From NCBI GenBank assembly GCA_026396995.1, contig JAPLVS010000054.1, positions 24,052 through 88,051 of the forward strand: DNA of 64,000 nt, in the 5' to 3' direction. Made by a program: the position numbers and the translations under genes. Numbering within the stretch: position 1 is the first letter of the stretch; each line of letters begins with the position of its first letter. Shown piece after piece: positions 8,156 to 61,682 of the stretch. Source of the stretch: Candidatus Iainarchaeum sp. Lineage in GTDB: Archaea > Iainarchaeota > Iainarchaeia > Iainarchaeales > DTGL01. The notes under the pieces are model-generated. The model was not told the origin of the DNA. It saw nothing but the letters and a program-made list of their open reading frames with translations, and did not search any database.

Positions 8156-9073
8156 TTGCCTTTTTTCAACCAAAAAAACACCGAAAACATTAAATTTTCG
8201 GACTTCGTTATTAGATGCATGCCCCAAGACCAGCCTGAATTCGGCAAAACCGCCGCTTTGGCCAGATTAAGGGACGAGCTGGCGGTAGCAGGTTATTCAG
8301 CAAGGACCGCGGAGATGTACCTTGGGTATGTAGAAGACATGCTGGATTTCTCCAAAAAAGCCCCGGAAACCATTACACGGGATGATGTAATGGCCTTCCT
8401 TTCAAAAAAGAGTGCAGAAAACGTGAAGGGCGCAACAATGGCTCTTGTCTATGCCGCCCTGAAATTCTATTTCCATGCGCACCTCAAGCGCAAGATAATG
8501 GAGGACATCAAGCGCCCAAAAAAGGCAAAAAAGCTGCCGGCAGTCATGACCAAGGATGAAGTCAGAGCCATCATAAATGTTGCCTCGGGCACGCAGAACC
8601 GCCTAATCCTCGGGCTGCTTTATTCGAGCGGCCTGAGAGTCAGCGAAATAGTGAACCTCAAGATTGGGAGCCTGGACCTGAAGGAAAAAACAGCCGCAGT
8701 GCGGGGCGGAAAAGGCAACAAGGACCGCATGGTGATCCTTTCAGAATCCTGGGCAAAAGAATTCGGCGAGTTTGTTTCAAAAAGGAAGGCCCAAAGCGAG
8801 TTTGCCTTCTGCAAGAAAAACTGCAAACCGATAAGCGTTGACACGGTGCAGAGGCTTGTGAGGAAATGCAGGAAGCTGGCTGGAATTGAAAAAAACATAA
8901 CGCCCCACTCCTTCAGGCACAGCTTTGCAACACATCTCCTCGAGGCAGGCGAGAACATCAGGAAAATACAGGAACTGCTTGGCCATTCAAGCCTTTCCAC
9001 AACACAAATTTACACAATGATCTCAACAGAGGAATTGAAAAAAGTGAAAAGCCCGCTGGATTCGCTTAAATAG
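8156..9073 (+). CDS. xerA: Tyrosine recombinase (XerA/XerC-like integrase family)
   Basis: C-terminal catalytic signature ...R...HSFRHSFATHLLEAG...LGHSSLSTTQIYT (R, H-x-x-R, H, Y). The N-terminal SAM-like core-binding region is AGYSARTAEMYLGYVEDMLDF. The real start may be the internal MPQDQ. Confidence 0.7.
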   Translation: MPFFNQKNTENIKFSDFVIRCMPQDQPEFGKTAALARLRDELAVAGYSARTAEMYLGYVEDMLDFSKKAPETITRDDVMAFLSKKSAENVKGATMALVYAALKFYFHAHLKRKIMEDIKRPKKAKKLPAVMTKDEVRAIINVASGTQNRLILGLLYSSGLRVSEIVNLKIGSLDLKEKTAAVRGGKGNKDRMVILSESWAKEFGEFVSKRKAQSEFAFCKKNCKPISVDTVQRLVRKCRKLAGIEKNITPHSFRHSFATHLLEAGENIRKIQELLGHSSLSTTQIYTMISTEELKKVKSPLDSLK

Positions 9074-15789: not shown

Positions 15790-17652
15790 TCACCTGCCGG
15801 CTTCGATTACTGCCGGCACTGAAAGGATTGCCTGCCTTACGCGCTGGAATTGCTCTGCGTCTTTCAGCCTTATGTCGAAGGCGAATTTTATTGTGCCGCC
15901 TTTCTCGCTTTTTGTTTCGGTGCCACCTATTGTTGCGCCCTGCCTTTCGAGTTCGCTCAGCAGGTCTATCAGGATGCCGGCCCTTTCCACTGTCCTGACT
16001 GTAAGCTTTATCGAATGCGCTTTTTTTTCTTCGGCGCCCCATTCTATTCCGATTTTTTTCTTTTCAGGCAGCAATGCGAGGAGCGGGCAGCCAGCGGCAT
16101 GGATTGTTATTTTCCTTTTCGTGGTCCTGTACCCTGTTATTTTGTCGCCGGGCAGGGGATTGCAGCATTTTGCCATGATTGTTTTTTTGAATGAGGCTGT
16201 TGTCGGTGCGCCCGCCGCTTTGTGCGGCTTGTACTTCAGGCTTTTTATGCCGAGCGTTTTCCTTATTTTTGTTTTTGCCTTTTCGGTTTTCACGATGTTG
16301 AGCCAGGCAGGCTTGCACTGGGTTTTTTTGGACGTGTTTACTTCGACCACATCCCCGCTTTCAAGAATCCCGTGCAGAGGCGAGATTTTTTCATTCACGG
16401 TCACGCTTGCGCACTTGTTGCCTATGTCTGAATGTATTGCGTAGGCGAAATCGAGCGCCGTGGAGCCTTCAGGCAGGGTTATTATTTCTTTTTTCGGTGA
16501 GAGCACGAATATTTCGGGCTCGCCGAATGCGAGTTTCAGGGAACGCATTGTTTCCCCGGTTTTCTTTATTTTCCTCTGCCATTCCACGAACTGCTTTACC
16601 CAGGTCAGCTTCTGGTCGAAATCCCTGTCCCTTTCGATGTGCTTGTATCTCCAGTGCGCGGCAAGGCCTTCCTCTGCGTTCCTGTGCATTTCCATTGTGC
16701 GGGCCTGCACCTCGGCTTTCCTGCCGTGCCAGTCTATCACCGTGTGGATTGACTGGTAGTTGTTTTTCTTCGGGTTTGCGATGTAGTCGTCGTATTCCCC
16801 TATGGGCCTGAAATTCAGGTGGATAAGCCCGATGGCGCGGTAGCAGTCCTCCACAGTATTGCAGATTATCCTTGCCCCGTACAGGTCGCCCATTTCCCCG
16901 AATTTTTTGTTCTGCCCGAACATTTTTTTGTAAATGCTGTTGAAGTTTTTTGCCCTTCCGGAAACGCTGGCGCTGATTTTTTCCCTGCCCAGTATTGCGC
17001 CAATTTCCCTTTCCAGCTTTTTGACATTGCGCTCGCGCTGCTCCCTTTTTTCCCCGACAAGGGCTTTTATTTTTTCGTATTCTTTGGGCTTGAAATATTT
17101 TAGTGCGAGGTCCTGTATTTCCCATTCCATTTCATAAAGGCCAAGCTTGTGGGCTATAGGCGCATAAACGTCCTGCACCAGTTCTGCAAGCGATTCCCTT
17201 TTGTTCTCCGGCCTCTGCTGTATTTTCCTCATTTTGTCGAGTTGCGAGGCAATTTCCACGAAAAGGCTCCTGAAGTCCTTCGCTATGCCCATTATGACCT
17301 TTGCAAGCCGCTGGTTTTCGAGTTCCCCGTAATTCCTGTTTTTCACGCTTTTCAGCCTTGCAATGTCTTCCACGATGCCTGCTGTTTCCGTGTCAAGTGC
17401 TTTTTCCAGTTCGGTTTTCTTTTCGGGGCTGTCGAAAAGTATTTCGTGTGTAAGGGCGGCGGCGATTGTGCCGGCGTCAAGGCCGAGGCTTGCGAGGATG
17501 AAGGCGGTGTTTGCCTGGTGCGCTTCCTGTTCCTTGTTTTTGCTGTGCTGGGCTGAAAACCTGAAGGCTTTTTCCACCAATTCAAAATCGCTTTTGTTTA
17601 TGTGCGCGCAAGCTTCCTTCAATTCCGCGAAAGAGCGGTTCCGGTATTGCAT
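15790..17652 (-). CDS. Long RelA/SpoT homolog (RSH) with an intact (p)ppGpp synthetase domain, degenerate HD hydrolase motifs, and TGS, zinc-finger and ACT domains
   Basis: Synthetase motifs GRAKNFNSIYKKM, DLYGARII, DYIANPKKNNYQSIHT and EVQARTMEMH...AAHWRYK are present. The hydrolase region reads LTHEILFDS in place of LHDVVEDT and EIASQLDKMRK in place of KLADRLHNMRT. A TGS domain follows (LPEGSTALDFAYAIHSDIG), then CCNPLPGDK...HAAGCP and a C-terminal ACT. Confidence 0.8.
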   Translation of the reverse strand: MQYRNRSFAELKEACAHINKSDFELVEKAFRFSAQHSKNKEQEAHQANTAFILASLGLDAGTIAAALTHEILFDSPEKKTELEKALDTETAGIVEDIARLKSVKNRNYGELENQRLAKVIMGIAKDFRSLFVEIASQLDKMRKIQQRPENKRESLAELVQDVYAPIAHKLGLYEMEWEIQDLALKYFKPKEYEKIKALVGEKREQRERNVKKLEREIGAILGREKISASVSGRAKNFNSIYKKMFGQNKKFGEMGDLYGARIICNTVEDCYRAIGLIHLNFRPIGEYDDYIANPKKNNYQSIHTVIDWHGRKAEVQARTMEMHRNAEEGLAAHWRYKHIERDRDFDQKLTWVKQFVEWQRKIKKTGETMRSLKLAFGEPEIFVLSPKKEIITLPEGSTALDFAYAIHSDIGNKCASVTVNEKISPLHGILESGDVVEVNTSKKTQCKPAWLNIVKTEKAKTKIRKTLGIKSLKYKPHKAAGAPTTASFKKTIMAKCCNPLPGDKITGYRTTKRKITIHAAGCPLLALLPEKKKIGIEWGAEEKKAHSIKLTVRTVERAGILIDLLSELERQGATIGGTETKSEKGGTIKFAFDIRLKDAEQFQRVRQAILSVPAVIEAGR

Positions 17653-17762
17653 AATTGTATTTCTGCTGGAAGTTGAATAAATATATGCTTTGCATTCCAA
17701 GGCGATGGCTTTAAATTGTTTTTCGGTATTTATTTTTGAAGTCTGTTTTTGGAGGCGCTCGC

Positions 17763-27742: not shown

Positions 27743-27783
27743 AATCAACCAATGTTATACTTTTTTATAATTTTGGTTGATTC
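27743..27783. promoter_or_regulatory. Perfect 10-bp inverted repeat AATCAACCAA-N21-TTGGTTGATT bracketing a TATA-like TTTTTTATAA, immediately upstream of the AbiEii-like gene
   Basis: Seen directly. It overlaps the predicted promoter and start region of 27792-28436. Confidence 0.35.
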
Positions 27784-27791
27784 TATTTAAT

Positions 27792-28436
27792 ATGAAGTTG
27801 CCGTTGTTCAACAGGCTGAAAAGCCAGTTGCACCGCGATATGGCCCTGTTGCAGGACGAGGTTGCGGATATCGTGTATTCGATTGAGCCAAAGGCGGTAT
27901 TGCATGGCGGCACCGCGGTCTGGCGCTGTTATTCGAGCAACCGCTTTTCAGAAGACCTCGATTTTTACATCGGTTCCGGCAAGGGCTTCAGGGAAAAATT
28001 TTTTTCCGCGGTTGAATCGCGCGGCCTCAGGGTTGAAAAATTCAAGCAGACTTCAAGCACGGTTTTTTCCAAAATTTCCAGCGGCCGGAATGAAGTTCGT
28101 TTTGAGGCCGCATTGAGGCTGCCGAAAAAGACAGCCGCTGCCGGATATGAAAAGGCCGATGGGACATTCATGAGCATTTTCACCCTGTCGCCCGAGGGCC
28201 TCCTGCTGGAAAAAATGTCAGCGTACCAAAACAGGCGCCTTGCCCGCGACCTTTATGACATTGTTTCACTGCTTTCTTTTGTGAAAGACGAAAAAGTAAT
28301 TGAAAGCGAAGCGCTGGCGTTCATCGAATCCGCCAAAGCGCCTGTTGATGAAAAAGCCCTGAAAGCCCTGGTGTTCTCAGGCGCAGTGCCTTCATTTGAA
28401 CAGGCAATGGATGCAATAAGGAGGCGGTTCAAATGA
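27792..28436 (+). CDS. AbiEii/AbiGii-family nucleotidyltransferase (type IV TA toxin-like)
   Basis: LHGGTAVWRCYSSNRFSEDLDFYIG matches the AbiEii NTase motif (GGTAL...R.SEDIDF). Confidence 0.55.
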   Translation: MKLPLFNRLKSQLHRDMALLQDEVADIVYSIEPKAVLHGGTAVWRCYSSNRFSEDLDFYIGSGKGFREKFFSAVESRGLRVEKFKQTSSTVFSKISSGRNEVRFEAALRLPKKTAAAGYEKADGTFMSIFTLSPEGLLLEKMSAYQNRRLARDLYDIVSLLSFVKDEKVIESEALAFIESAKAPVDEKALKALVFSGAVPSFEQAMDAIRRRFK

Positions 28437-29044
28437 AATATGCGTCGATTGTGAGGGAGCATTTTTCAAAGCAGGCTGTTTTCAGCATACGCGACCTTTC
28501 AATTTTTCTTTCAACCAAGGGCATTTCCAAAGGCTATGTGCGCCTGTTTCTCCACAACCTTTTGAAAAAAGGCGAAATCGTGCGCATTTCCAAAGGCATT
28601 TATTCTTTTGAAAAAGACCCGGTGCTTTGGGGCTTTGCTTTTTCGCCTTTTTATTATGGCCTGCAGCAGGCACTTTCCCTGCATGGCCTATGGGAGCAGG
28701 AAAGCATTCCAGTAATAATAACGCCCAGAAAAGTGAGAACCGGCCTGAGGGAAATCTGCGGCTCGAACATCTTGGTCAGGCGCATCGGCAGGAAAATGTT
28801 TTTCGGCTTTGAAATGCTGCCCTATTACGGCCAGTTCATCCCGGTTTCCTGCCCTGAAAAAACCCTTTTGGATTTTTTTTATTTCAGGGAACCTTTGCCT
28901 GAAAGCGCGCTGAAAGAGCTCTTGAAAAAGGCCGACGGCAAAAAATTGAACGCTTTCCTTAAAAAATACCCGAAGCGCTTCAGGCATTCGTTCAGGAAAA
29001 AATTCCCTGTCTTCTTTGAAAAAGCCGGAAAGGAAAAGAAATAG
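28433..29044 (+). CDS. AbiEi-like antitoxin / wHTH transcriptional regulator
   Basis: N-terminal wHTH (FSIRDLSIFLSTKGISKGYVRLFLHNLLKKGEIVRISKGIYSF) is typical of AbiEi. Overlaps the upstream gene by 4 nt (ATGA). Confidence 0.5.
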   Translation: MKYASIVREHFSKQAVFSIRDLSIFLSTKGISKGYVRLFLHNLLKKGEIVRISKGIYSFEKDPVLWGFAFSPFYYGLQQALSLHGLWEQESIPVIITPRKVRTGLREICGSNILVRRIGRKMFFGFEMLPYYGQFIPVSCPEKTLLDFFYFREPLPESALKELLKKADGKKLNAFLKKYPKRFRHSFRKKFPVFFEKAGKEKK

Positions 29045-32795: not shown

Positions 32796-34718
32796 ATGGC
32801 TTTGTCTGAGTGGAGCGAAGAAAAAGGCTTTTTTGCAAAGAACAAGCCTAAGCGGGAAGAAGGCTCAAACCCTGACAGCGAATGGGAAAAACTCGAGCAG
32901 ACTTTGCTCAGGCGGAAAGACCAGGCCAATTCAATGGATGAGCCTGACGGTGCCCTGATTGCATTGATAAACCAGCTTGATTCCGAACTAAAGGAAAAAA
33001 AGCAGGGCAAGGCAGATGAAAAGGCGCTTGAGCGCTCAAAGGACACGCTGGCAATGATCGATGAAAGGCTGCACGGCACAGACTGGCCTGTGAGGGAACT
33101 GCAGAACAAAGTCAGGAAGGCGGCTGCAGGCGAAAGCAGGGAAGCGATGCCTGCCGCCAGAAAAGCACCGGAGGAAACCAAAATGGCTGCAAATTTTGAT
33201 GTTAAAAAAGAAGAGGAAAAAATAAGGAAAGCCATGGAGGCAAAACTGAGGGAAGCCGGGCAGGCCCAGAAAGAAGACATGTTCGAGGAAGCTGAGCCTG
33301 AAGACCTTGAAGCAGGCGGAAGCGCCGAACCGGCACAGGGCAAGGCTGCAGTCGTGGAAGACGACCTTTTCGAGCCAGAAGAATCCAGGTCGGGTGCGCC
33401 TGAACCGTTGGATGAAGCCGCGGAGGAATCCTTCGAGGAAGAATTCGAGGAAACAGAAAAGCCGGCAAAGGCTGAAAAAAAGGCAGCCGAGCAGCCATCA
33501 AAAAAAGAAAAAAAGGAAGTGTCGCGCGATTCATTCAAGGGAACCGTTGACCTTGAAAAAGCGGAATTTTTGTACAAGGCTTCGGTCAACCAGCTTCTCA
33601 AGGCGCAGCTTGAAAACGGAGCAATCATTCCGACAAGCAGCGAAAAGAGTTATCTGCACATTTACCCGAGGGACCTTGCCTTTTGCACGCTTGCATTGGT
33701 GAAAGCCGAAAGATTCGATGAAGCGCAAAAAGCGCTTGATTTTGCCTTAAGGCACCAGGACAGGAAAACAGGCTGTTTCCCGCAAAGGTGGGACGAGGCA
33801 GGGAACAACAACGGCTACAAGCCGGTGCAGCCAGACGCCACAGCGCTCGTGCTTTACGCTTTCGCAGAATATGTGCTTGAAAAAAACAATGTCGATTTTG
33901 CTGAAGTGAACTGGGACCGCATAGAGAAAGCCATTGATTTTTTGAATTCGAAAATCGTATCAGACAAAAACCTGGTGTTTGCGCCGTCCTCTGTGCACGA
34001 ATTCCCGCCGATGGAAGAAGGCTATGAAATCTGGGCAAATGCGGTTTGCTGCGCGGCATTCAGGGAGCTTTCCAAGGTCGCAGAAAAAATAAAGGCAGAA
34101 TATCTCCCATTGAGCAAGGAAAACGCCCTCAAGGATTCGATGCTGCAGTACCTGTGGAATTCGAGAAAGCAGTGCTTTGTAAAAACCATAAGGCTGAGCG
34201 AATCCAGTTCAGTGATGCTCTGGCCTGATGCCTCTGTCCTCGCTCTTTCCTTCTTTGATGTTTTCGCCCCGAACGACAAAAAAATCGTTTCGACAATAAA
34301 ACTGCTGGATGAAAAATTATGGCACAAGTCTTTCGGCGGAATCTCAAAATTCGGCCCGGTTGAAGGCGTTGAAAAAGGCGGTTTCGGGGCAAGCCCGTTC
34401 TTCTCGCTCCTGCTCGCCGACTATTATATCAAGGCAGGCGACAGGGAGAAAGCCGAAAAGTTCCTGAACTGGGTTATTAGCGTGGGACAGGCAGGCTCGC
34501 TGCCTGAACATGTTTCAACCAAAGAGGATTTCGAGGCGTTCGTGCTGGATTTCGGGGACGCCGGCCTCCTTAACAGGAACACAATGAAGCAGATCAACAG
34601 CGTCAGGGAAAGCGGCGATTTCAAGAACGGCATTGCAAGAATCACTGATCCGTTCTCGATGGCGCACGCCGCATTCATCCTTGTCTGGAAAAACTACAAG
34701 GAAAAATTCATGAAGTGA
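32796..34718 (+). CDS. Protein with a ~250-aa acidic/Lys-rich disordered N-terminus and a GH15-like (glucoamylase/trehalase-type alpha/alpha-6 barrel) C-terminal domain
   Basis: SYLHIYPRDLAFCTLAL matches the GH15 Y-x-x-x-W-x-RD-x-AF motif with W replaced by Y. Repeated helical hairpin pattern downstream. The N-terminal 250 aa are E/K/A low complexity. Confidence 0.45.
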   Translation: MALSEWSEEKGFFAKNKPKREEGSNPDSEWEKLEQTLLRRKDQANSMDEPDGALIALINQLDSELKEKKQGKADEKALERSKDTLAMIDERLHGTDWPVRELQNKVRKAAAGESREAMPAARKAPEETKMAANFDVKKEEEKIRKAMEAKLREAGQAQKEDMFEEAEPEDLEAGGSAEPAQGKAAVVEDDLFEPEESRSGAPEPLDEAAEESFEEEFEETEKPAKAEKKAAEQPSKKEKKEVSRDSFKGTVDLEKAEFLYKASVNQLLKAQLENGAIIPTSSEKSYLHIYPRDLAFCTLALVKAERFDEAQKALDFALRHQDRKTGCFPQRWDEAGNNNGYKPVQPDATALVLYAFAEYVLEKNNVDFAEVNWDRIEKAIDFLNSKIVSDKNLVFAPSSVHEFPPMEEGYEIWANAVCCAAFRELSKVAEKIKAEYLPLSKENALKDSMLQYLWNSRKQCFVKTIRLSESSSVMLWPDASVLALSFFDVFAPNDKKIVSTIKLLDEKLWHKSFGGISKFGPVEGVEKGGFGASPFFSLLLADYYIKAGDREKAEKFLNWVISVGQAGSLPEHVSTKEDFEAFVLDFGDAGLLNRNTMKQINSVRESGDFKNGIARITDPFSMAHAAFILVWKNYKEKFMK

Positions 34719-34808
34719 TATCAAAAGACAGCACTATCAGTATTTCCTAAATGTCTTTTGATAGTTATCAAAGGACAAATTTATACGATTATTTTTGTCC
34801 TTTGATAT
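34717..34808 (+). repeat. Double-hairpin intergenic repeat element, copy A
   Basis: ATATCAAAAGACA-N21-TGTCTTTTGATAGTTATCAAAGGACAAA-N14-TTTGTCCTTTGATA fills the whole spacer between convergent genes. Confidence 0.75.
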
Positions 34809-34811
34809 GAA

Positions 34812-38713: not shown

Positions 38714-39373
38714 ATGAGGATCGACAAGCGGACCCTTGAAGCAAGCCCGTTTCTCGGGGTTTTCGGCATCCTCACAGACAAAATATTCCTTGTCCCCTCG
38801 GGCATCCTTGAAAAGGAACTGCAGGGATTGCAGGATTTTGCAGGCGTTGAAGTATTGAAGGCAAGCATTGCCGCTTCCCCGCTTTTAGGCGTCCTTGGAA
38901 TCGGCGTTAAAGAAAAGATAGCGGTTTCGGACCTCGCAAGGGACAGGGAAATAGTTGCACTGGAAAAGGCAGGCCTGAAGGTCACAAGGATTGAAGGTGC
39001 CACGGCGCTCGGCAACCTTGCGCGCATCACCGAAAAAGGCGGTGTTTTGTCACCCATACTTTCAAGAGAGCAATGCGAAAAGCTCGAATCCTTTTTCGGC
39101 GTGAAAATGGTCGAGAGCACTGTCGCAGGCCTTGACCTTGCCGGTTCAAGCATTGTGGCGAATTCGAAAGGCTTCATAGTGCACCCCGGGGTTTCAAAGG
39201 AAGAGTTCGCCCGCATAAAGAACGCATTGCAGGTAGAGGGCATTCCTACAACCGCGAACTACGGGGACAGGTTTGTCGGGAACAGCGTTCTCGTGAACAG
39301 CAATGCGATGCTTTTGGGCGTTAACACTACAGGCCACGAACTGATGAGGATTGAGGAGGCGTTTTTGGGCTAG
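38714..39373 (+). CDS. eif6: Translation initiation factor 6 (aIF6)
   Basis: Five-fold pseudo-repeat with SPFLGVFGILTDKIFLVP / SPLLGVLGIGVKEKIAV. 219 aa. Confidence 0.85.
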   Translation: MRIDKRTLEASPFLGVFGILTDKIFLVPSGILEKELQGLQDFAGVEVLKASIAASPLLGVLGIGVKEKIAVSDLARDREIVALEKAGLKVTRIEGATALGNLARITEKGGVLSPILSREQCEKLESFFGVKMVESTVAGLDLAGSSIVANSKGFIVHPGVSKEEFARIKNALQVEGIPTTANYGDRFVGNSVLVNSNAMLLGVNTTGHELMRIEEAFLG

Positions 39374-39383
39374 CATTCTTAAC

Positions 39384-39470
39384 ATCAAAAGGCATTGATT
39401 CAGGAATTTTTCTGGCCTTTTGATAACTATCAAAGGGCAATATTGTTCATTTATTTTTGTCCTTTGATAT
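39384..39470 (+). repeat. Double-hairpin intergenic repeat element, copy B (diverged)
   Basis: ATCAAAAGGCA...GGCCTTTTGATAACTATCAAAGGGCAA-N16-TTGTCCTTTGATAT lies between eif6 and rplX. Confidence 0.6.
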
Positions 39471-39542
39471 AACGCATAAAAAACCATTCATCCATTAATT
39501 TTTGGAAATATTAATTTTTTGGAAATTCCAGTTGGTGAGAGC

Positions 39543-39722
39543 ATGAGGTTTGAATTGAAAGGTGTTTTCCAGCAGAAAGGCAATGAAAAGCCGTTCTGCA
39601 AGAGCATAGAGGCCGAAAACGAGGGCCGCGCAAAGGAAAAGCTCCTGAGTCTTTTCGGTTCGGAGCACAGGCTCAAGAGGCGCTCTGTGAAGATAACCGA
39701 AATCAATAAATTAAAGGAATGA
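39543..39722 (+). CDS. rplX: 50S ribosomal protein LX (L18Ae/L20A)
   Basis: MRFELKGVF...FCKSIEAENEGRAKEKLLSLFGSEHRLKRRSVKITEI matches the LX pattern (F.V.G.F...A.nee.A.e...S.H). Confidence 0.6.
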   Translation: MRFELKGVFQQKGNEKPFCKSIEAENEGRAKEKLLSLFGSEHRLKRRSVKITEINKLKE

Positions 39723-39726
39723 CTAA

Positions 39727-39816
39727 TATCAAAAGACATTAATAATGATATTTTCTAAATGTCTTTTGATAGCTATCAAAGGACAAATTTATGCGATTAT
39801 TTTTGTCCTTTGATAC
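39727..39816 (+). repeat. Double-hairpin intergenic repeat element, copy C
   Basis: ATATCAAAAGACA-N21-TGTCTTTTGATAGCTATCAAAGGACAAA-N14-TTTGTCCTTTGATA lies between rplX and pfdA. Confidence 0.75.
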
Positions 39817-39845
39817 AATAAGTACATTGTTTGAGAGGTGAAGCG

Positions 39846-40313
39846 ATGGCCAAGGAAAAAACACAGAACAAAGAGGTGAGGCTCAGCCCCCAGCAGCTTG
39901 TTTCATTGTACCAGAACCAGCGCGCTTTAATGGACAACCTGCTGCAGCAGGAAGCGATGATGCAGGAAGCCGCAAGGGAAATAATCGGCGCAGAGGACGC
40001 CCTCAAGGAAATAGACAAGGCCGAAGAGGACGCTAACGTCCTGGTGTTGCTTGGCGCAGGCGTTTTCGTTGAAGCGAAAGTGAAAGGCAAGCAGGTAAAG
40101 AGCGACATAGGCAGCGGAGTGGTTGAAAACGCCACTGTAAAAAAAGCGCTTGAGCACCTTGAAATAAAGAAGAAAAACATTTCCGCAAATATTGCAAAGC
40201 TCCAGAAGAAAAAACAGGAAACCGCAGCGGGCCTTGCAAGGCTTGAAGGAATACTCCAGCAGGTGCAGAAAGCGCTGGCCAAAAAGGACACTTCGCCCTC
40301 AAGCGTTTCCTGA
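39846..40313 (+). CDS. pfdA: Prefoldin subunit alpha
   Basis: Coiled coil - beta hairpin (VLVLLGAGVFVEAKV) - coiled coil, about 155 aa, in the conserved position before ftsY. Confidence 0.7.
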   Translation: MAKEKTQNKEVRLSPQQLVSLYQNQRALMDNLLQQEAMMQEAAREIIGAEDALKEIDKAEEDANVLVLLGAGVFVEAKVKGKQVKSDIGSGVVENATVKKALEHLEIKKKNISANIAKLQKKKQETAAGLARLEGILQQVQKALAKKDTSPSSVS

Positions 40314-41942: not shown

Positions 41943-41987
41943 GTATGGGCGCTAGCTTCGCCCAGCAATATTGGCAGGATTGTGTAA

Positions 41988-42719
41988 TCAATCGCTTCTT
42001 TTTCGCCTGAACAAGCGCTTACGTTTTTTTCCGACAAGTTCTTCTACTACAAGCTTTTGCACTTGCCTTGAAACCTCTTCTCTCGGAAGCGTCGTGTCGA
42101 TTTCAAAAACACGCACGCCTTTTGCCCTGAGTTCGGCAAGCCTTTTTTCGTTTGCCTTCTCCATTCTTTCCAGGTTTTCAAGTTTTTCGTGCTTGAAAAC
42201 AACTCCGCCCCACTCGTCCACGACATTCCTTTCCGCAATCCTTTTCACTGAGACCTCTGGCGGTACCCTAAGGTGTATTACGGCGTCAGGCAAAGGGCCG
42301 GCTACAGCCCTGGCAGTGCTTTTTGTAACAAACCTCGGGATTTTTCCAGCGTATACTGCGGTAATTGCCGTCGCGTCGGTCACCGGATCCCTTTGGAAAA
42401 GGCGCACATCGCTTTTCCTTGTGGCAACCCTTGCAGCGCGGAATGCGGACCCTGCAATCGCACTGCCGGCCAGGATTTTTCTGTCGGAGCCTTTTTCGGC
42501 GCCTCTTTTTATGAGGCGCTTGCCATAGCCTCCAACCCTTCCGGCAACCCCCTTGAACCCGACAAAGTGCGGGGCGTCAATTATTGCAACATTAAGGCCC
42601 TTTTCCCTGAGTGCCTGCTGCAGCTTCCCGGCAACTGTTGTCTTGCCGCAGCCGTCGATTCCGACAATGGCGATATCTGTCGGGCGCTTTCTTTTAAAAG
42701 GGCGTTTCAAAGGCGGCAT
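41988..42719 (-). CDS. Thymidylate-kinase-like P-loop NMP kinase paralog (short form)
   Basis: N-terminus MPPLKRPFKRKRPTDIAIVGIDGCGKTT has a Tmk-type P-loop. A DRY-like QRDPVTDATAI...AVYAG follows. It is the last gene of a four-gene minus-strand operon. Confidence 0.45.
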   Translation of the reverse strand: MPPLKRPFKRKRPTDIAIVGIDGCGKTTVAGKLQQALREKGLNVAIIDAPHFVGFKGVAGRVGGYGKRLIKRGAEKGSDRKILAGSAIAGSAFRAARVATRKSDVRLFQRDPVTDATAITAVYAGKIPRFVTKSTARAVAGPLPDAVIHLRVPPEVSVKRIAERNVVDEWGGVVFKHEKLENLERMEKANEKRLAELRAKGVRVFEIDTTLPREEVSRQVQKLVVEELVGKKRKRLFRRKRSD

Positions 42720-44032
42720 TATTTTTTCCTTCTTCCCAATTTTGCCTTCACTTTTTTCTCAATTGAAATTTTCCATTCAAGGTAGCGCTTGGCCCCCCTG
42801 GTTATTGTTTCGACCTTCGAGGACACATTGTATTTGCCGTAAAGCCTTCCGAGTTTCTTGTATGCGAAATGGTCTGCCAGAATGCCCATCATTTCCGGTT
42901 CCCTTACAATCGAGGAAACAATATAAGCGGTTCTCCCAGCAAAGGGAATTGCTCCGATGAGCATCGCTTCCCCGCTGTGCAATCTCTTGATTTTTTCATA
43001 TTCTTCCGCAGAAATATTTCCGGCCAAGCGCCTTGCCATCCCAATTCCCCTCATAGCGGCCGTATAGGCCGGCCTTCCCACGGTTCCGACGCCGGCCATT
43101 ATTACCGGCACCCCGCTTATTGCCAGATGCACTCCGAAGTGCGTCAAAAAATCCGAAAAATAGCCTTTCCCTATTTTTTCCCTCAATTCCGCAGCTTTCT
43201 CCTGACCAATTCTTCCTTCTTTTTCCCAGCGCCAGATTCCATCAACCATAAATTGCATGGCCTGCTCTTTCTTTCGCTCCAGATATTTTTTCCTGCCTTT
43301 TTCCATTAGCCTTTTTTCTTTCAATATCCTTTGCACCTGCCCTAAAACTGCCTCCTTTGGAAGAGATGCATCTATTTCCAGAATCCACACGCCTTTTGAC
43401 GCAAGCTCCGCCTTGCGTTTCTGATAAGCAGAATTCAATCCCTCAAGATTTTCAGGCTTTTCATGCTGGAATTCAATTGCGTGCAAGCCACTGCCACCAG
43501 CTCTTTTTTTTGCAAGCCGTTCGGCAGCAGTTGCAGGCTCTACCGAAAGAAATACTGCAACATCCGGCAAAGGCCCCCCTGCAATCCGCCCGGCTGCCTT
43601 GGAAAACGCCAGGATTATCCTTCCGCCGTACTGCCTTGCCAAGACAGGCGCTTCAATTGCCGGATGCCTTTCAATAATCCTGACAGTGCTTTTTCTCGAT
43701 TTGGCCCTTGCCATCCTTGTCGGAAGCGAGGCAATCGCTCCGCCAGCTGCAGCAAGCCTCTTTGATTGTTTTTCCGCTCCTTTTGCACTAATACTCCTTC
43801 CAAACCCACTCACTCTTCCAATCATTCCGCCATAATCCTGGAAATGCGGAACATCCAGGACCGCGGTTTTGGTGCCCTGCGCATTCAACCGGCTTTGCAA
43901 TCCCCTTGCAAGTGTTGTTTTCCCCGCGCCATCAATCCCCACAATCGCAATATCAGTGGGCCTTTTCCGCCTGAACAATCTTTTTGGGGGCATAAATATG
44001 ATGCTGTTTGTTGAGTTTAAATTACTTTTCAA
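42719..44032 (-). CDS. Thymidylate-kinase-like P-loop kinase paralog fused to a ~200-aa C-terminal domain of unknown function
   Basis: The N-terminal 230 aa are paralogous to 41988-42719 (PPKRLFRRKRPTDIAIVGIDGAGKTT, ERHPAIEAPVLARQYGG). The C-terminal domain is uncharacterised and moderately hydrophobic. TAATG overlap with the downstream gene. Confidence 0.45.
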   Translation of the reverse strand: MKSNLNSTNSIIFMPPKRLFRRKRPTDIAIVGIDGAGKTTLARGLQSRLNAQGTKTAVLDVPHFQDYGGMIGRVSGFGRSISAKGAEKQSKRLAAAGGAIASLPTRMARAKSRKSTVRIIERHPAIEAPVLARQYGGRIILAFSKAAGRIAGGPLPDVAVFLSVEPATAAERLAKKRAGGSGLHAIEFQHEKPENLEGLNSAYQKRKAELASKGVWILEIDASLPKEAVLGQVQRILKEKRLMEKGRKKYLERKKEQAMQFMVDGIWRWEKEGRIGQEKAAELREKIGKGYFSDFLTHFGVHLAISGVPVIMAGVGTVGRPAYTAAMRGIGMARRLAGNISAEEYEKIKRLHSGEAMLIGAIPFAGRTAYIVSSIVREPEMMGILADHFAYKKLGRLYGKYNVSSKVETITRGAKRYLEWKISIEKKVKAKLGRRKK

Positions 44033-44071
44033 ATCGCAATGGCCAAGCCGGCCAAAAGGCTTTCCGGTTGC

Positions 44072-44860
44072 TTATTGCTTTACCACCGGCACAAGCCTTC
44101 CAGACCTTTTCACAAGCTTGCCGTCAGGCGTGAACACAAACATTTTCGCCTTTCCAGTGCGAGGGTCGATGGCTTCGATTTTGCAGTATTTTTCCAGGTC
44201 ATCTGTCGGAACGAACCTGCCCTGCTTTGTAACATTTTCAGATTGCCCCTGCCTTTCATACCCGATGCTTTTGAAAATGCCCTCAAATTTGCCTGGTTTA
44301 AACGAATGTTCACTATAAAACTCTATTTTTCTTCCGGGATTGCCGAAGGAAGGGCGGTTTCCTGCTCTCTTTGCAGGATTTTGGGAACGCACATGCCTTT
44401 CAGCGCGGGAAGCAAATTTTTTGCCGAGCCCAAGCCCCCGCATGCGTTCCGGGATGCGCATGTGCGCCAGGTCTTCTCTGGCAAAGAAAAAAGGGGCGCC
44501 TTTGTCAGGTATGACATCAGTTCCGATTCCCTTTTTCAGCTGGCACTCCAATAACGAGATAATGGACCCGCCCCTGGCAATGATAATTTTCCCGTCCGAA
44601 AGCAGATGTGCACCTCGGAGATTGCCAAAAATAGTTTTCAATGGCACCATGATTTCCTGCTCTGGCCCAATCCAGAATGCGGCATATCTGTTATTGCTTT
44701 TTTGCAGGTCTATCTCCAGCGGCCACACAAGCGGCTTCTTTCCTGCCGCCCCTCTTGCAGTGTCCCTTCTCTGCCTTTTGGCTTCGAGTTTTTCCCTTTG
44801 ATTTGGATATTTATATTTTCTTTCCGCTTTCGGGATTCTGCGCCTTGATTTTTGTGGCAT
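44072..44860 (-). CDS. Hypothetical protein with GNAT-like motif-A segment; paralog of 44870-45693
   Basis: Basic N-terminus. GKKPLVWPL, IIIARGG, and AHMRIPERMRGLGLGKKFASRAERHV, which resembles acyl-CoA-binding motif A. C-terminal IEAIDPRTGKAKMFVF. Confidence 0.4.
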   Translation of the reverse strand: MPQKSRRRIPKAERKYKYPNQREKLEAKRQRRDTARGAAGKKPLVWPLEIDLQKSNNRYAAFWIGPEQEIMVPLKTIFGNLRGAHLLSDGKIIIARGGSIISLLECQLKKGIGTDVIPDKGAPFFFAREDLAHMRIPERMRGLGLGKKFASRAERHVRSQNPAKRAGNRPSFGNPGRKIEFYSEHSFKPGKFEGIFKSIGYERQGQSENVTKQGRFVPTDDLEKYCKIEAIDPRTGKAKMFVFTPDGKLVKRSGRLVPVVKQ

Positions 44861-44869
44861 TTTTTCATC

Positions 44870-45693
44870 TCACTTGACCGGAAAAACGTATTCCTTCACT
44901 TTGCCTGTCCGCGGGTCGATTGCTTCAATTATATGGAAGCGGGACATATTTGATGTCGCTTTTACCCTACCTTCTTTGTGGTATTTCCTCAACACAAACT
45001 CATCTTCTTCTGGGCTTTCTTGCCAGTACCTAATTTTTGTAAAAAGCCGGTCAAAAAGGTCCCGGCGGTTTTCGCCCATCCAAATCGTATTTTTTCCGTC
45101 CTTTTCTCCCTTACATCCCTGTCGGCCCTTGAAGCAAACCTTTCGGCCAGTCCAGTGCCTCTCAGTTTTTTTGGCAAATACATGTGCGCGATATCTGCAG
45201 TGGGCTCTATTGCAAAAAAAGCCATTGCCCAGTGCTTGTCAGTAATCGGTTGCTCACCACCGTTTTTCCATTCATACAGTTTTATCGCTACAAATGGCGA
45301 ATAGTTTGGCACGGTCCTCGCAACAATGATTCTGCCTCCAGGTCCGCGGTAAACCCCCTGCAATAATCTGCCATGTTCCGCCAGCGGAACCGGCACCTCG
45401 TTTTTTCCGTCGAGCAGAACCACTTCCTTCCTTTTGGTTTTTTCCCCAGTTGGCCCCGCGATTTCCCGTTCCACCACGCCTTGTTCCAACATGGTCAAAG
45501 GCTGGACTAATGGTTTTTTGCCGGCTTTTCCCAGTGCTTCCCTGGCAGGAATACCCTCAGCAATCAGTTTTCTTGCCCTTCTTTTTCTTTCTTCCCGCCT
45601 GGCCAAATTCCTTGCGAACCTTTTCCTGGCAAACTTGTCAGGCTCAGGCTTGCCGGCAGTCAGGTATTTTTGAGGAATTTTCCGTGAAGACAT
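44870..45693 (-). pseudogene. Paralog of 44072-44860, interrupted by a frameshift (234-aa N-part 44989-45693 plus 69-aa C-part 44870-45079)
   Basis: Shares GKKPLVQPL, RIIVART, AHMYLPKKLRGTGLAERFASRADRDV with its neighbour. The paralog's C-terminal motif IEAIDPRTGKVKEYVF lies in the separate overlapping 69-aa ORF. Confidence 0.4.
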
Positions 45694-45733
45694 AAATCAA
45701 TTAGTGCCGGACCAGAATAAATTCCTATCCTGT

Positions 45734-47335: not shown

Positions 47336-47427
47336 CCCCCTGAAAAGAAACACTAATTGAAGAATAAAAGTTTAAATATTGATTTGCAAGGCAAAGGGTT
47401 TTATTCTTTGCAATCGTATAATTAGTT

Positions 47428-47691
47428 ATGGCTGGAAGGATTTTACGAATAGCCAAGAAGGCCGGGCAGGCAGTGAAGCACAGAGTCACCAGGTTGAAGG
47501 CCGCAGGCAGTGCAGCGAAAAGGGCGGTCAGGAAAGAAGACCTGGCTTATCTCAAAAGGCGGATTTCGGCCATTGAGCAGGCCAGGGAAAAACACCCCGG
47601 GGCAGCGCACGAGTTAGGCAAGCTGAATGCAAGGCGCAAAAAGCTCGAAGGCAAGATTGCCCGCCTTGGCGGGAAAAACCCCGAGCAATAG
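47428..47691 (+). CDS. Hypothetical small basic coiled-coil protein
   Basis: 87-aa ORF, K/R/A-rich. Confidence 0.3.
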   Translation: MAGRILRIAKKAGQAVKHRVTRLKAAGSAAKRAVRKEDLAYLKRRISAIEQAREKHPGAAHELGKLNARRKKLEGKIARLGGKNPEQ

Positions 47692-47738
47692 ATTGAACCC
47701 TAATCAATCGAAAGGCAATATGCAATGCGGATGTTTTT

Positions 47739-48038
47739 ATGGTTTCACTGCCAGAAATAACAAAAACGCAGTTTGGCAAATTTTTGGCAAATGCTTCCAA
47801 GCTTGGCCTTGAAAGGGTTAATGGCAATAAATCCGATTTTCCCCAAACTGTCCTGATGGTTTACAAATCAAAACATGTGCTTAATTTTGAATGTTTGATG
47901 GGCGGAGGGCTTGAGTTTTACATTGCGGGCATTGTTGAAAAAGGCAGCCTGAGATTGTTCAAAAAACCGGAAGAAATCAAAACATCCGGCCGCCTGCTTC
48001 TTCGCATGAAGAAAAAAATTGAGCAACTGATTCAATGA
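47739..48038 (+). CDS. Hypothetical protein
   Basis: 99-aa ORF. No motif recognised. Confidence 0.3.
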   Translation: MVSLPEITKTQFGKFLANASKLGLERVNGNKSDFPQTVLMVYKSKHVLNFECLMGGGLEFYIAGIVEKGSLRLFKKPEEIKTSGRLLLRMKKKIEQLIQ

Positions 48039-48538
48039 ACTTTGCCCAAGCGTCAATTTCCGTAAATTTAATTTGCCGGCAAAGCTTCCCAAGGGCAAAG
48101 TATTTTTTATTGTTTGCAAGCATATAATCGGTTATGCCTCGGTTTGCCCGCGGGATTGTACGATCTGTTGCTGGTAGAATTTCCCAACGCAGGGAAACCA
48201 GGCGAGCGGCCAGGAGGAAAACCCTTGGCAGGGAACTTGGCATTGTCGGCCTGGACATCGGGCACCTTAATAGGACGGCTTCATTGCACGGCAGCATTGC
48301 CAGAATGCGGCGCCGGAAAGGCGAACCTAACCTCCAGTCCCTGGGAATGGAAGCCAGGGCGCGCAGAGCGGCAGTGCCTCTGGAAAAAAGATCCAGAAGG
48401 CTTAGGGCCCAGCTCGCCGGCCTTGGGGCAAAACCTTAGCAATCCTTCAACTTCCAAGCCCCACAACTGCCCGCAACCTGCTTGAAGCCCAATCTCCTTA
48501 TCGCAAGGTAATAAAACCTTTCAATGCTTATTTTTTGC

Positions 48539-61445: not shown

Positions 61446-61509
61446 GCAATTTCCCGTCCAAAACCCCTTCAGGTAATATTTTTATAGGACAAGCCCCTAT
61501 TTTATTCTT

Positions 61510-61598
61510 ATATCAAAGGACCAAAGTAATGTATAAATTGGTCCTTTGATAGCTATCAAAAGACAGTTAGAAAACCAGTAATGCTGTCTTTTGATATT
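61510..61598 (-). repeat. Double-hairpin intergenic repeat element, copy D (inverted orientation)
   Basis: Its reverse complement reads ATATCAAAAGACA-N19-CTGTCTTTTGATAGCTATCAAAGGACCAA-N13-TTGGTCCTTTGATA. It sits in the divergent promoter region between pth2 and 61683-63476. Confidence 0.75.
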
Positions 61599-61682
61599 AA
61601 TCGATTAATCGCCGAGGCTGGTTGGGAAGGGAGCGGAAAAGGCTGGAATTGCGGTTGGGTTTTGGTTCGGGCGGTTTTGGGA

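Follow-up and report, generated by a model that had tools for sequence, protein, structure and literature searches.

The window considered here, meaning the whole stretch of 64,000 nucleotides that was analysed, belongs to a DPANN archaeon of the Iainarchaeota (formerly Diapherotrites). It carries a conserved ribosomal-protein cluster in which the genes follow the order S19e, PDCD5-like, L39e, L31e, aIF6, LX (L18Ae), prefoldin alpha (39846-40313) and FtsY, identified by Pfam matches except for L39e, which lay outside the scan. From the aIF6 stop (39373) to the LX start (39543) we measured 169 nt, close to the 170 bp given by a first-pass annotation that had placed a repeat, copy B, in this spacer at 39384-39470. 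The repeat is indeed there, at 39383-39469, and is one of four element copies in the window, 86-89 bp long, with A, B and C on the plus strand and D on the minus strand. Together with their neighbouring features these are:

34719-34807, plus strand: element copy A, probable MITE, 89 bp, with a TGA/TGA duplication at 34716-34718 and 34808-34810
38714-39373, plus strand: aIF6 gene, upstream of copy B (Pfam eIF-6, 1.9e-41)
39380-39382, plus strand: TAA, left target-site duplication of copy B, a single TAA at the empty sites of the relatives L064 and L110
39383-39469, plus strand: element copy B, probable MITE, 87 bp (nhmmer E=2.6e-17; double-hairpin fold z=-6.2)
39383-39394, 39395-39413 and 39414-39425: unit 1, loop and unit 2 of copy B
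39426-39427: linker AC of copy B
39428-39439, 39440-39457 and 39458-39469: unit 3, loop and unit 4 of copy B
39470-39472, plus strand: TAA, right target-site duplication of copy B
39473-39542, plus strand: native aIF6-LX spacer, 3' of the insertion, highly conserved in relatives
39543-39722, plus strand: ribosomal protein LX (L18Ae) gene, downstream of copy B (Pfam Ribosomal_L18A, 1.5e-11)
39727-39815, plus strand: element copy C, probable MITE, 89 bp, in the LX-prefoldin spacer, flanked by TAA (39724-39726) and CAA (39816-39818)
61511-61596, minus strand: element copy D, probable MITE, 86 bp, between divergent PTH2 and secreted-protein genes

Each copy is built from four 12-nt units (TATCAAARGACA) in the order -> <- -> <-, giving two tandem hairpins separated by a 2-nt joint. 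The outermost two units, TATCAAAAGACA and TGTCCTTTGATA, act as terminal inverted repeats; in nearly all copies 11 of their 12 positions are complementary. The copies fold at -30 to -35 kcal/mol (z -6 to -9), as RNA or equally as single-stranded DNA. The hairpins of copy B, which keeps the TTTGATA-NN-TATCAAA core, were borne out by a two-hairpin fold of -30.5 kcal/mol (z=-6.2); its reverse strand folds too (z=-4.3), and on the sense strand both B and C carry T5 runs. The core is found at four places in the window, where shuffled sequence would give 0.02. Over about 90 nt the four copies can be aligned with one another, their identity falling sharply at both ends. The likeness is not one of AT-rich low complexity, and the ground on which the first-pass annotation would have fallen is therefore absent. 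A profile was made from 50 copies, among them those of the window; it found these four again (B at E=2.6e-17) and no fifth in the window. Rfam returned no family at gathering score for the whole window or any copy, with only sub-threshold noise of microRNA-like hairpins, and no family match at E<=10 around copies B and C. The compensatory changes that had been claimed for copy B need one correction: the pair in hairpin 2, GGGCA/TGTCC, is a G·T mismatch, and the real double change is in hairpin 1, where AAGGC/GCCTT stands against AAGAC/GTCTT.

Comparison with related genomes proved informative in establishing how copy B came to lie in this spacer. The window shares about 7 kb, at 81-90% identity, with contig JAZDDY010000092.1 of a Candidatus Iainarchaeum MAG (L064), in which the spacer reads GCATTCT-TAA-CGCATAAAA, or over a longer stretch GCATTCT-TAA-CGCATAAAAAACC, where the window has TAA, 87 bp and TAA again; the two differ at this site by exactly 90 bp. 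The spacers of three further relatives were reached through their aIF6 proteins. In L110, whose aIF6 is 93% identical to that of the window at the amino acid level, there is a 62-nt spacer with a single TAA; in L112 (75%) the spacer is also 62 nt, with CAA at the insertion point; and L113 (72%) has no aIF6-LX spacer. The element is thus absent from the orthologous position in all four relatives, the comparison of the eif6-rplX spacer being one that the first-pass annotation had proposed, and its description of the repeat as inserted is upheld. The insertion point lies 6 nt after the aIF6 stop, and in L064 the corresponding TAA is the stop codon itself. Copy C shows a different distribution. 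Its site is filled in L064 by a copy 99% identical to that of the window, and it is absent in L110, which has a single CAA, and in L112 and L113. Presence/absence polymorphism with a precise empty site is therefore seen for B in L064, L110 and L112, and for C in L110, L112 and L113. Since C is filled in L064 but the B site there is empty, the insertion of C preceded that of B, and B entered the lineage of the window alone, once it had separated from the nearest relatives with sequenced genomes. In short-read assemblies of the same strain, contigs end within both copies, as would be expected of a dispersed repeat.

The same comparisons bear on the part of the spacer that was left in place. The native sequence at 39473-39542 shows about 85% nucleotide conservation with L112 2161-2222, although the aIF6 of that genome has only 75% amino acid identity, and the insertion of copy B left the 60-70 nt just upstream of LX intact. 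This conserved stretch probably holds LX's own promoter or leader signals, and its conservation suggests a promoter or leader for LX and not simple co-transcription with aIF6. Just upstream of LX there is also a 17-nt tandem duplication, ATTAATTTTTGGAAAT followed by ATTAATTTTTTGGAAAT (39494-39509 and 39510-39526), which repeats a TATA-like AT-rich block; it is specific to the window and missing in L064, L110 and L112. Two larger segments of the window, 41943-45729 and 47395-48499, are missing from the otherwise collinear L064, the first of which contains two thymidylate-kinase-like P-loop paralogues and two ORFs that have no Pfam match. Exact-protein look-ups with LX, PTH2 and an FMN dehydrogenase gave no matches. 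Elsewhere in the window there is an AbiEii toxin / AbiEi antitoxin-like gene pair (27777-29044) and, on the minus strand at 15790-17700, a full-length RelA/SpoT-type protein with HD, RelA_SpoT, TGS and ACT domains. Long RSH proteins are, to our knowledge, uncommon in archaea.

The duplicated TAA at copy B is the signature of a 3-nt staggered cut and its repair, and the flanks of most copies in the family follow the same rule. Among 54 distinct full copies, taken from the window and 16 Iainarchaeota (DPANN) genomes, 40 have identical 3-nt flanks (21 TAA, 15 TTA, 2 TCA and 2 TGA), a matching supported by Fisher's test (p=8e-8) and by permutation (p<=1e-5). TAA or TTA accounts for 36 of these 40 and TCA or TGA for the other 4, while mixed TAA/TTA flanks occur in only three of the 54 copies. 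In copy D the duplication is TAA on the element strand, seen as TTA on the plus strand at 61508-61510 and 61597-61599. Two other models of the flanks were rejected: inverted flanks fit only 3 of the 54 copies, and a TA duplication of the IS630/Tc1 type needs an extra base on alternating sides and cannot give TCA/TCA or TGA/TGA. TAA and TGA are stop codons, as are TTA and TCA when read on the other strand, and in 15 of the 54 copies, A among them, the duplication falls on the stop codon of an ORF at least 60 codons long. The left TGA of copy A is the stop codon of the gene at 32796-34718, and before this insertion its two convergent neighbour genes stood 1 nt apart.

A search of a species-representative genome collection with an 18-base core pattern gave 91 loci, 57 of which, counted from the listings, are in 16 Iainarchaeota/Diapherotrites genomes. 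All but a few truncated or decayed examples of the latter have the full four-unit element. Another 34 core matches are bacterial and comprise the central palindrome only, about 17 such matches being expected by chance; three core matches in viral contigs had no flanking units. Copy number reaches at least 19 in one MAG, JBDRIL01, compared with 4 per 64 kb in the window. The 54 copies are 57-94 bp long, with a mode of 89-91, well below the limit of about 500 bp that applies to MITEs, and 52 of them lie outside long ORFs as judged from crude ORF calls. In the window A lies between convergent genes, D between divergent genes, and B and C between co-directional genes. Copies between convergent, divergent and co-directional genes alike were found across the 16 genomes, in an analysis of gene orientation that is noisy, having used crude ORF calls that misjudged two of the four window contexts, and that supports only the statement that all contexts occur.

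Sequence relationships within the family indicate more than one line of descent. Copy B has its nearest relatives in L004 (84%) and L081 (82%), copies of the sister MAG with which it has loop sequences in common, and copies A, C and D group with L064, L090 and L018, which implies that two subfamilies coexist in the lineage. By these groupings copy B is a member of a second subfamily and not a copy that decayed in place. To call it diverged, as was done at first, is therefore misleading for a recent insertion of a different subfamily. Decayed copies do occur. In Ca. Iainarchaeum andersonii (AQRS01000042.1; L020, 5523-5696) two tandem copies have one TTA between them, as would fit a later insertion into the target that the earlier one had duplicated. 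A short-loop copy of 69-70 bp is present at an orthologous site in LFW-252_2 and Ca. Forterrea (L037 1266-1335 and L045 4638-4706), whose genomes are about 82% identical, which shows that some insertions last for long periods.

The hairpins of the family behave in a way that deserves separate description. At unit position 8 both arms of hairpin 1 have A and both arms of hairpin 2 have G, with the result that the termini are mismatched there in 53 of 54 copies. Position 10 co-varies within hairpins (in hairpin 1, 47 A-T, 6 G-C and 1 mismatch among the 54 copies) and shows no co-variation between the termini (40 A-T, 3 G-C and 11 mismatches). Of the 38 copies in which the loops could be scored, 10, from at least four genomes, carry one loop or both as the reverse complement, in all combinations. 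This flip/flop is independent for the two hairpins and is sometimes found within one MAG (L003, L008, L069, L075 and others). It is not an artefact of assembly, since assembly k-mers greatly exceed the arms in length. Mismatches of the G·T and A·C kinds occur in balanced numbers, 4 and 3, and so give no signature of an RNA strand.

Three independent lines of evidence, the empty sites, the target-site duplications and the distribution, identify a mobile element, and we consider it very likely, with a probability of about 0.9, that copy B belongs to a family of non-autonomous DNA transposons (MITEs) spread through the Iainarchaeota. It integrated into the TAA 6 nt downstream of the aIF6 stop, duplicating that TAA. 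A DDE-type transposase acting in trans would catalyse the movement; this putative enzyme would bind the 12-nt motif and target TNA, with a preference for TAA and TTA. Harbinger elements and the IS1031 group of IS5 typically make duplications of 3 bp, mostly TAA or TTA (PMC12730594, PMC2516522). The enzyme would most likely be of the IS5 (IS1031-group) or PIF/Harbinger kind, with which the 3-bp TNA/TWA target agrees, a loose assignment drawn solely from the length and sequence of the target-site duplication. Having landed in neither of the two coding regions and ahead of the conserved leader or promoter of LX, copy B may have persisted through tolerance and not selection. Its two hairpins and T5 runs, if present in a transcript, could have an incidental influence on read-through or stability; given the stable hairpins and T5 runs, such an effect on the transcript is possible for both B and C.

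Bacteria and several archaea are well known to carry MITEs (PMC10969869, PMC11602168), and the present elements can be compared with those already described. Like the MITEs and insertion sequences of the Tourist-like PIF/Harbinger and IS5 (IS1031-group) types, they are short, AT-rich, non-coding, multi-copy and intergenic, with terminal inverted repeats and a 3-bp duplication that is mostly TAA or TTA. They differ in having internal inverted copies of the terminal repeat, which give the two tandem hairpins, and in their DPANN host, and they are only putative members of either group, no partner transposase having been found. The Correia elements of Neisseria are likewise repeats of about 100 bp with inverted repeats that lie next to or between genes; they are co-transcribed, and their RNA hairpins can alter transcript fate (PMC10969869). 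They are nevertheless unlike the element described here in having a TA duplication, 26-bp ends, one long hairpin and a bacterial host. Archaeal MITEs have been reported from Sulfolobus (SM1-SM4), Halobacterium, Haloquadratum and Desulfurococcus (PMC10969869). These too are non-autonomous elements of intergenic archaeal DNA that are mobilised in trans, although they differ in duplication length and architecture and are not known to be related to ours in sequence. Our literature search yielded no account of this element family, nor one of any MITE from Iainarchaeota.

The search for an autonomous partner covered the window, about 0.5 Mb of fetched Iainarchaeota DNA and one metagenome scan, and gave no autonomous element or transposase with these ends. 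Pfam detected no transposase among about 50 ORFs of the window. In the fetched DNA no autonomous parent emerged from searches for solo units, for TNA-flanked inverted ends 300-4000 bp apart or for generic inverted repeats of at least 14 bp lying 0.6-3.5 kb apart, nor did one emerge from the metagenome scan for hairpin 1 not followed by hairpin 2. These searches yielded only decayed MITEs, unrelated hairpins and chance pairs. A solo unit in L040 was inspected as a possible parent and rejected, and an all-against-all BLAST of the fetched loci showed no multi-copy coding repeat.

The position of copy B within a ribosomal-protein cluster had been taken to indicate a selected role in transcript processing, attenuation or decay. 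On this explanation the repeat would be a cis-acting RNA element, such as a processing site, attenuator or stability determinant, that uncouples the expression of aIF6 and LX. The very stable double hairpins of the sense strand (z -6 to -9), the sense-direction T5 runs of copies B and C and the retention of one copy at the orthologous site in L037 and L045 would all fit such a role, and RNase III cuts transcripts at bacterial MITEs of the Correia type, for example (PMC10969869). Yet four relatives have the same spacer region without the element, the copies carry target-site duplications, they lie between convergent and divergent genes and in both orientations, and their loops are flipped in about a quarter of scorable copies. 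The near-equality of G·T and A·C mismatches, the folding of the reverse strand and the lack of any Rfam match weigh in the same direction. We regard a selected RNA function as very improbable and the earlier proposal as unsupported, the repeat being a mobile one found in every gene context with loops either way; if the insertion at aIF6-LX is that of a MITE, its position shows tolerance and not a selected task in the operon.

Slightly less probable again is a palindrome of the REPIN/BIME kind or one derived from IS200/IS605, moved as single-stranded DNA by a hairpin-recognising HUH (Y1) transposase. Our elements resemble REPINs and BIMEs (associated with RAYT) and the IS200/IS605-derived palindromes in their alternating units, reminiscent of REP doublets, and in hairpins that are each kept palindromic; the arms co-evolve within hairpins and not between termini, and the loops flip. 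Those systems, however, insert without duplicating the target, whereas here there is a clear 3-bp duplication of variable triplets, the two flanks co-varying among near-identical copies of one genome. There is, moreover, no fixed 4-5 nt target on the left flank, and the window has no Y1/RAYT or TnpA gene. Mobilisation by a Xer-like tyrosine recombinase, with the ...TTTTGATA-NN-TATCAAAG... palindrome and the joined ends as recombination sites, can be set aside as extremely unlikely, for although the central 26-bp palindrome is like a recombinase core site and a Phage_integrase/XerA-like gene is present at 8156-9073, the empty sites have nothing in common with the element ends beyond the 3-nt TAA or CAA, with no extended core homology and no similarity to recombinase arms, the targets are many different TNA sites, and the gene is single, housekeeping-like and was rejected as the mobiliser.

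To return to the MITE interpretation, the mismatch at position 8, the co-variation within hairpins and the flipped loops are not predicted by a simple cut-and-paste mechanism acting on terminal inverted repeats. From these features each hairpin seems to act as a palindromic module of its own. Such behaviour might arise through template switching, through conversion by copies that lie the other way round, or through a step of transposition that involves a hairpin. We offer tentatively, and as a rather doubtful extension, that the family is a self-contained double-palindrome module, whose hairpins are each kept perfectly paired and can each flip the loop independently, and not an ordinary deletion-derived MITE.

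The finding does away with a functional interpretation that was tempting but wrong for this repeat in a conserved ribosomal-protein cluster, and it explains the breaks in short-read assemblies at these points in these organisms. As the insertion of C and then of B separates close lineages, the family is a useful marker of recent genome change. MITEs as such are already well known; this family, common to at least 16 Iainarchaeota (DPANN) genomes and of unusual hairpin behaviour, is apparently undescribed. The target preference, within-hairpin pairing and loop flip/flop could be signs of an archaeal transposase yet to be characterised, or of DNA dynamics that depend on the hairpins. If the module reading were true, it would imply a step of transposition or maintenance that proceeds through extruded hairpins, in single-stranded or cruciform DNA, and is coupled to integration at TNA with a 3-nt stagger, the work of an enzyme so far unrecognised in Iainarchaeota. 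Since TNA targets are stop codons on one strand or the other, the element would then tend to mark the ends of genes, the genomes being very compact, and some copies may have taken on the part of terminators or processing signals.
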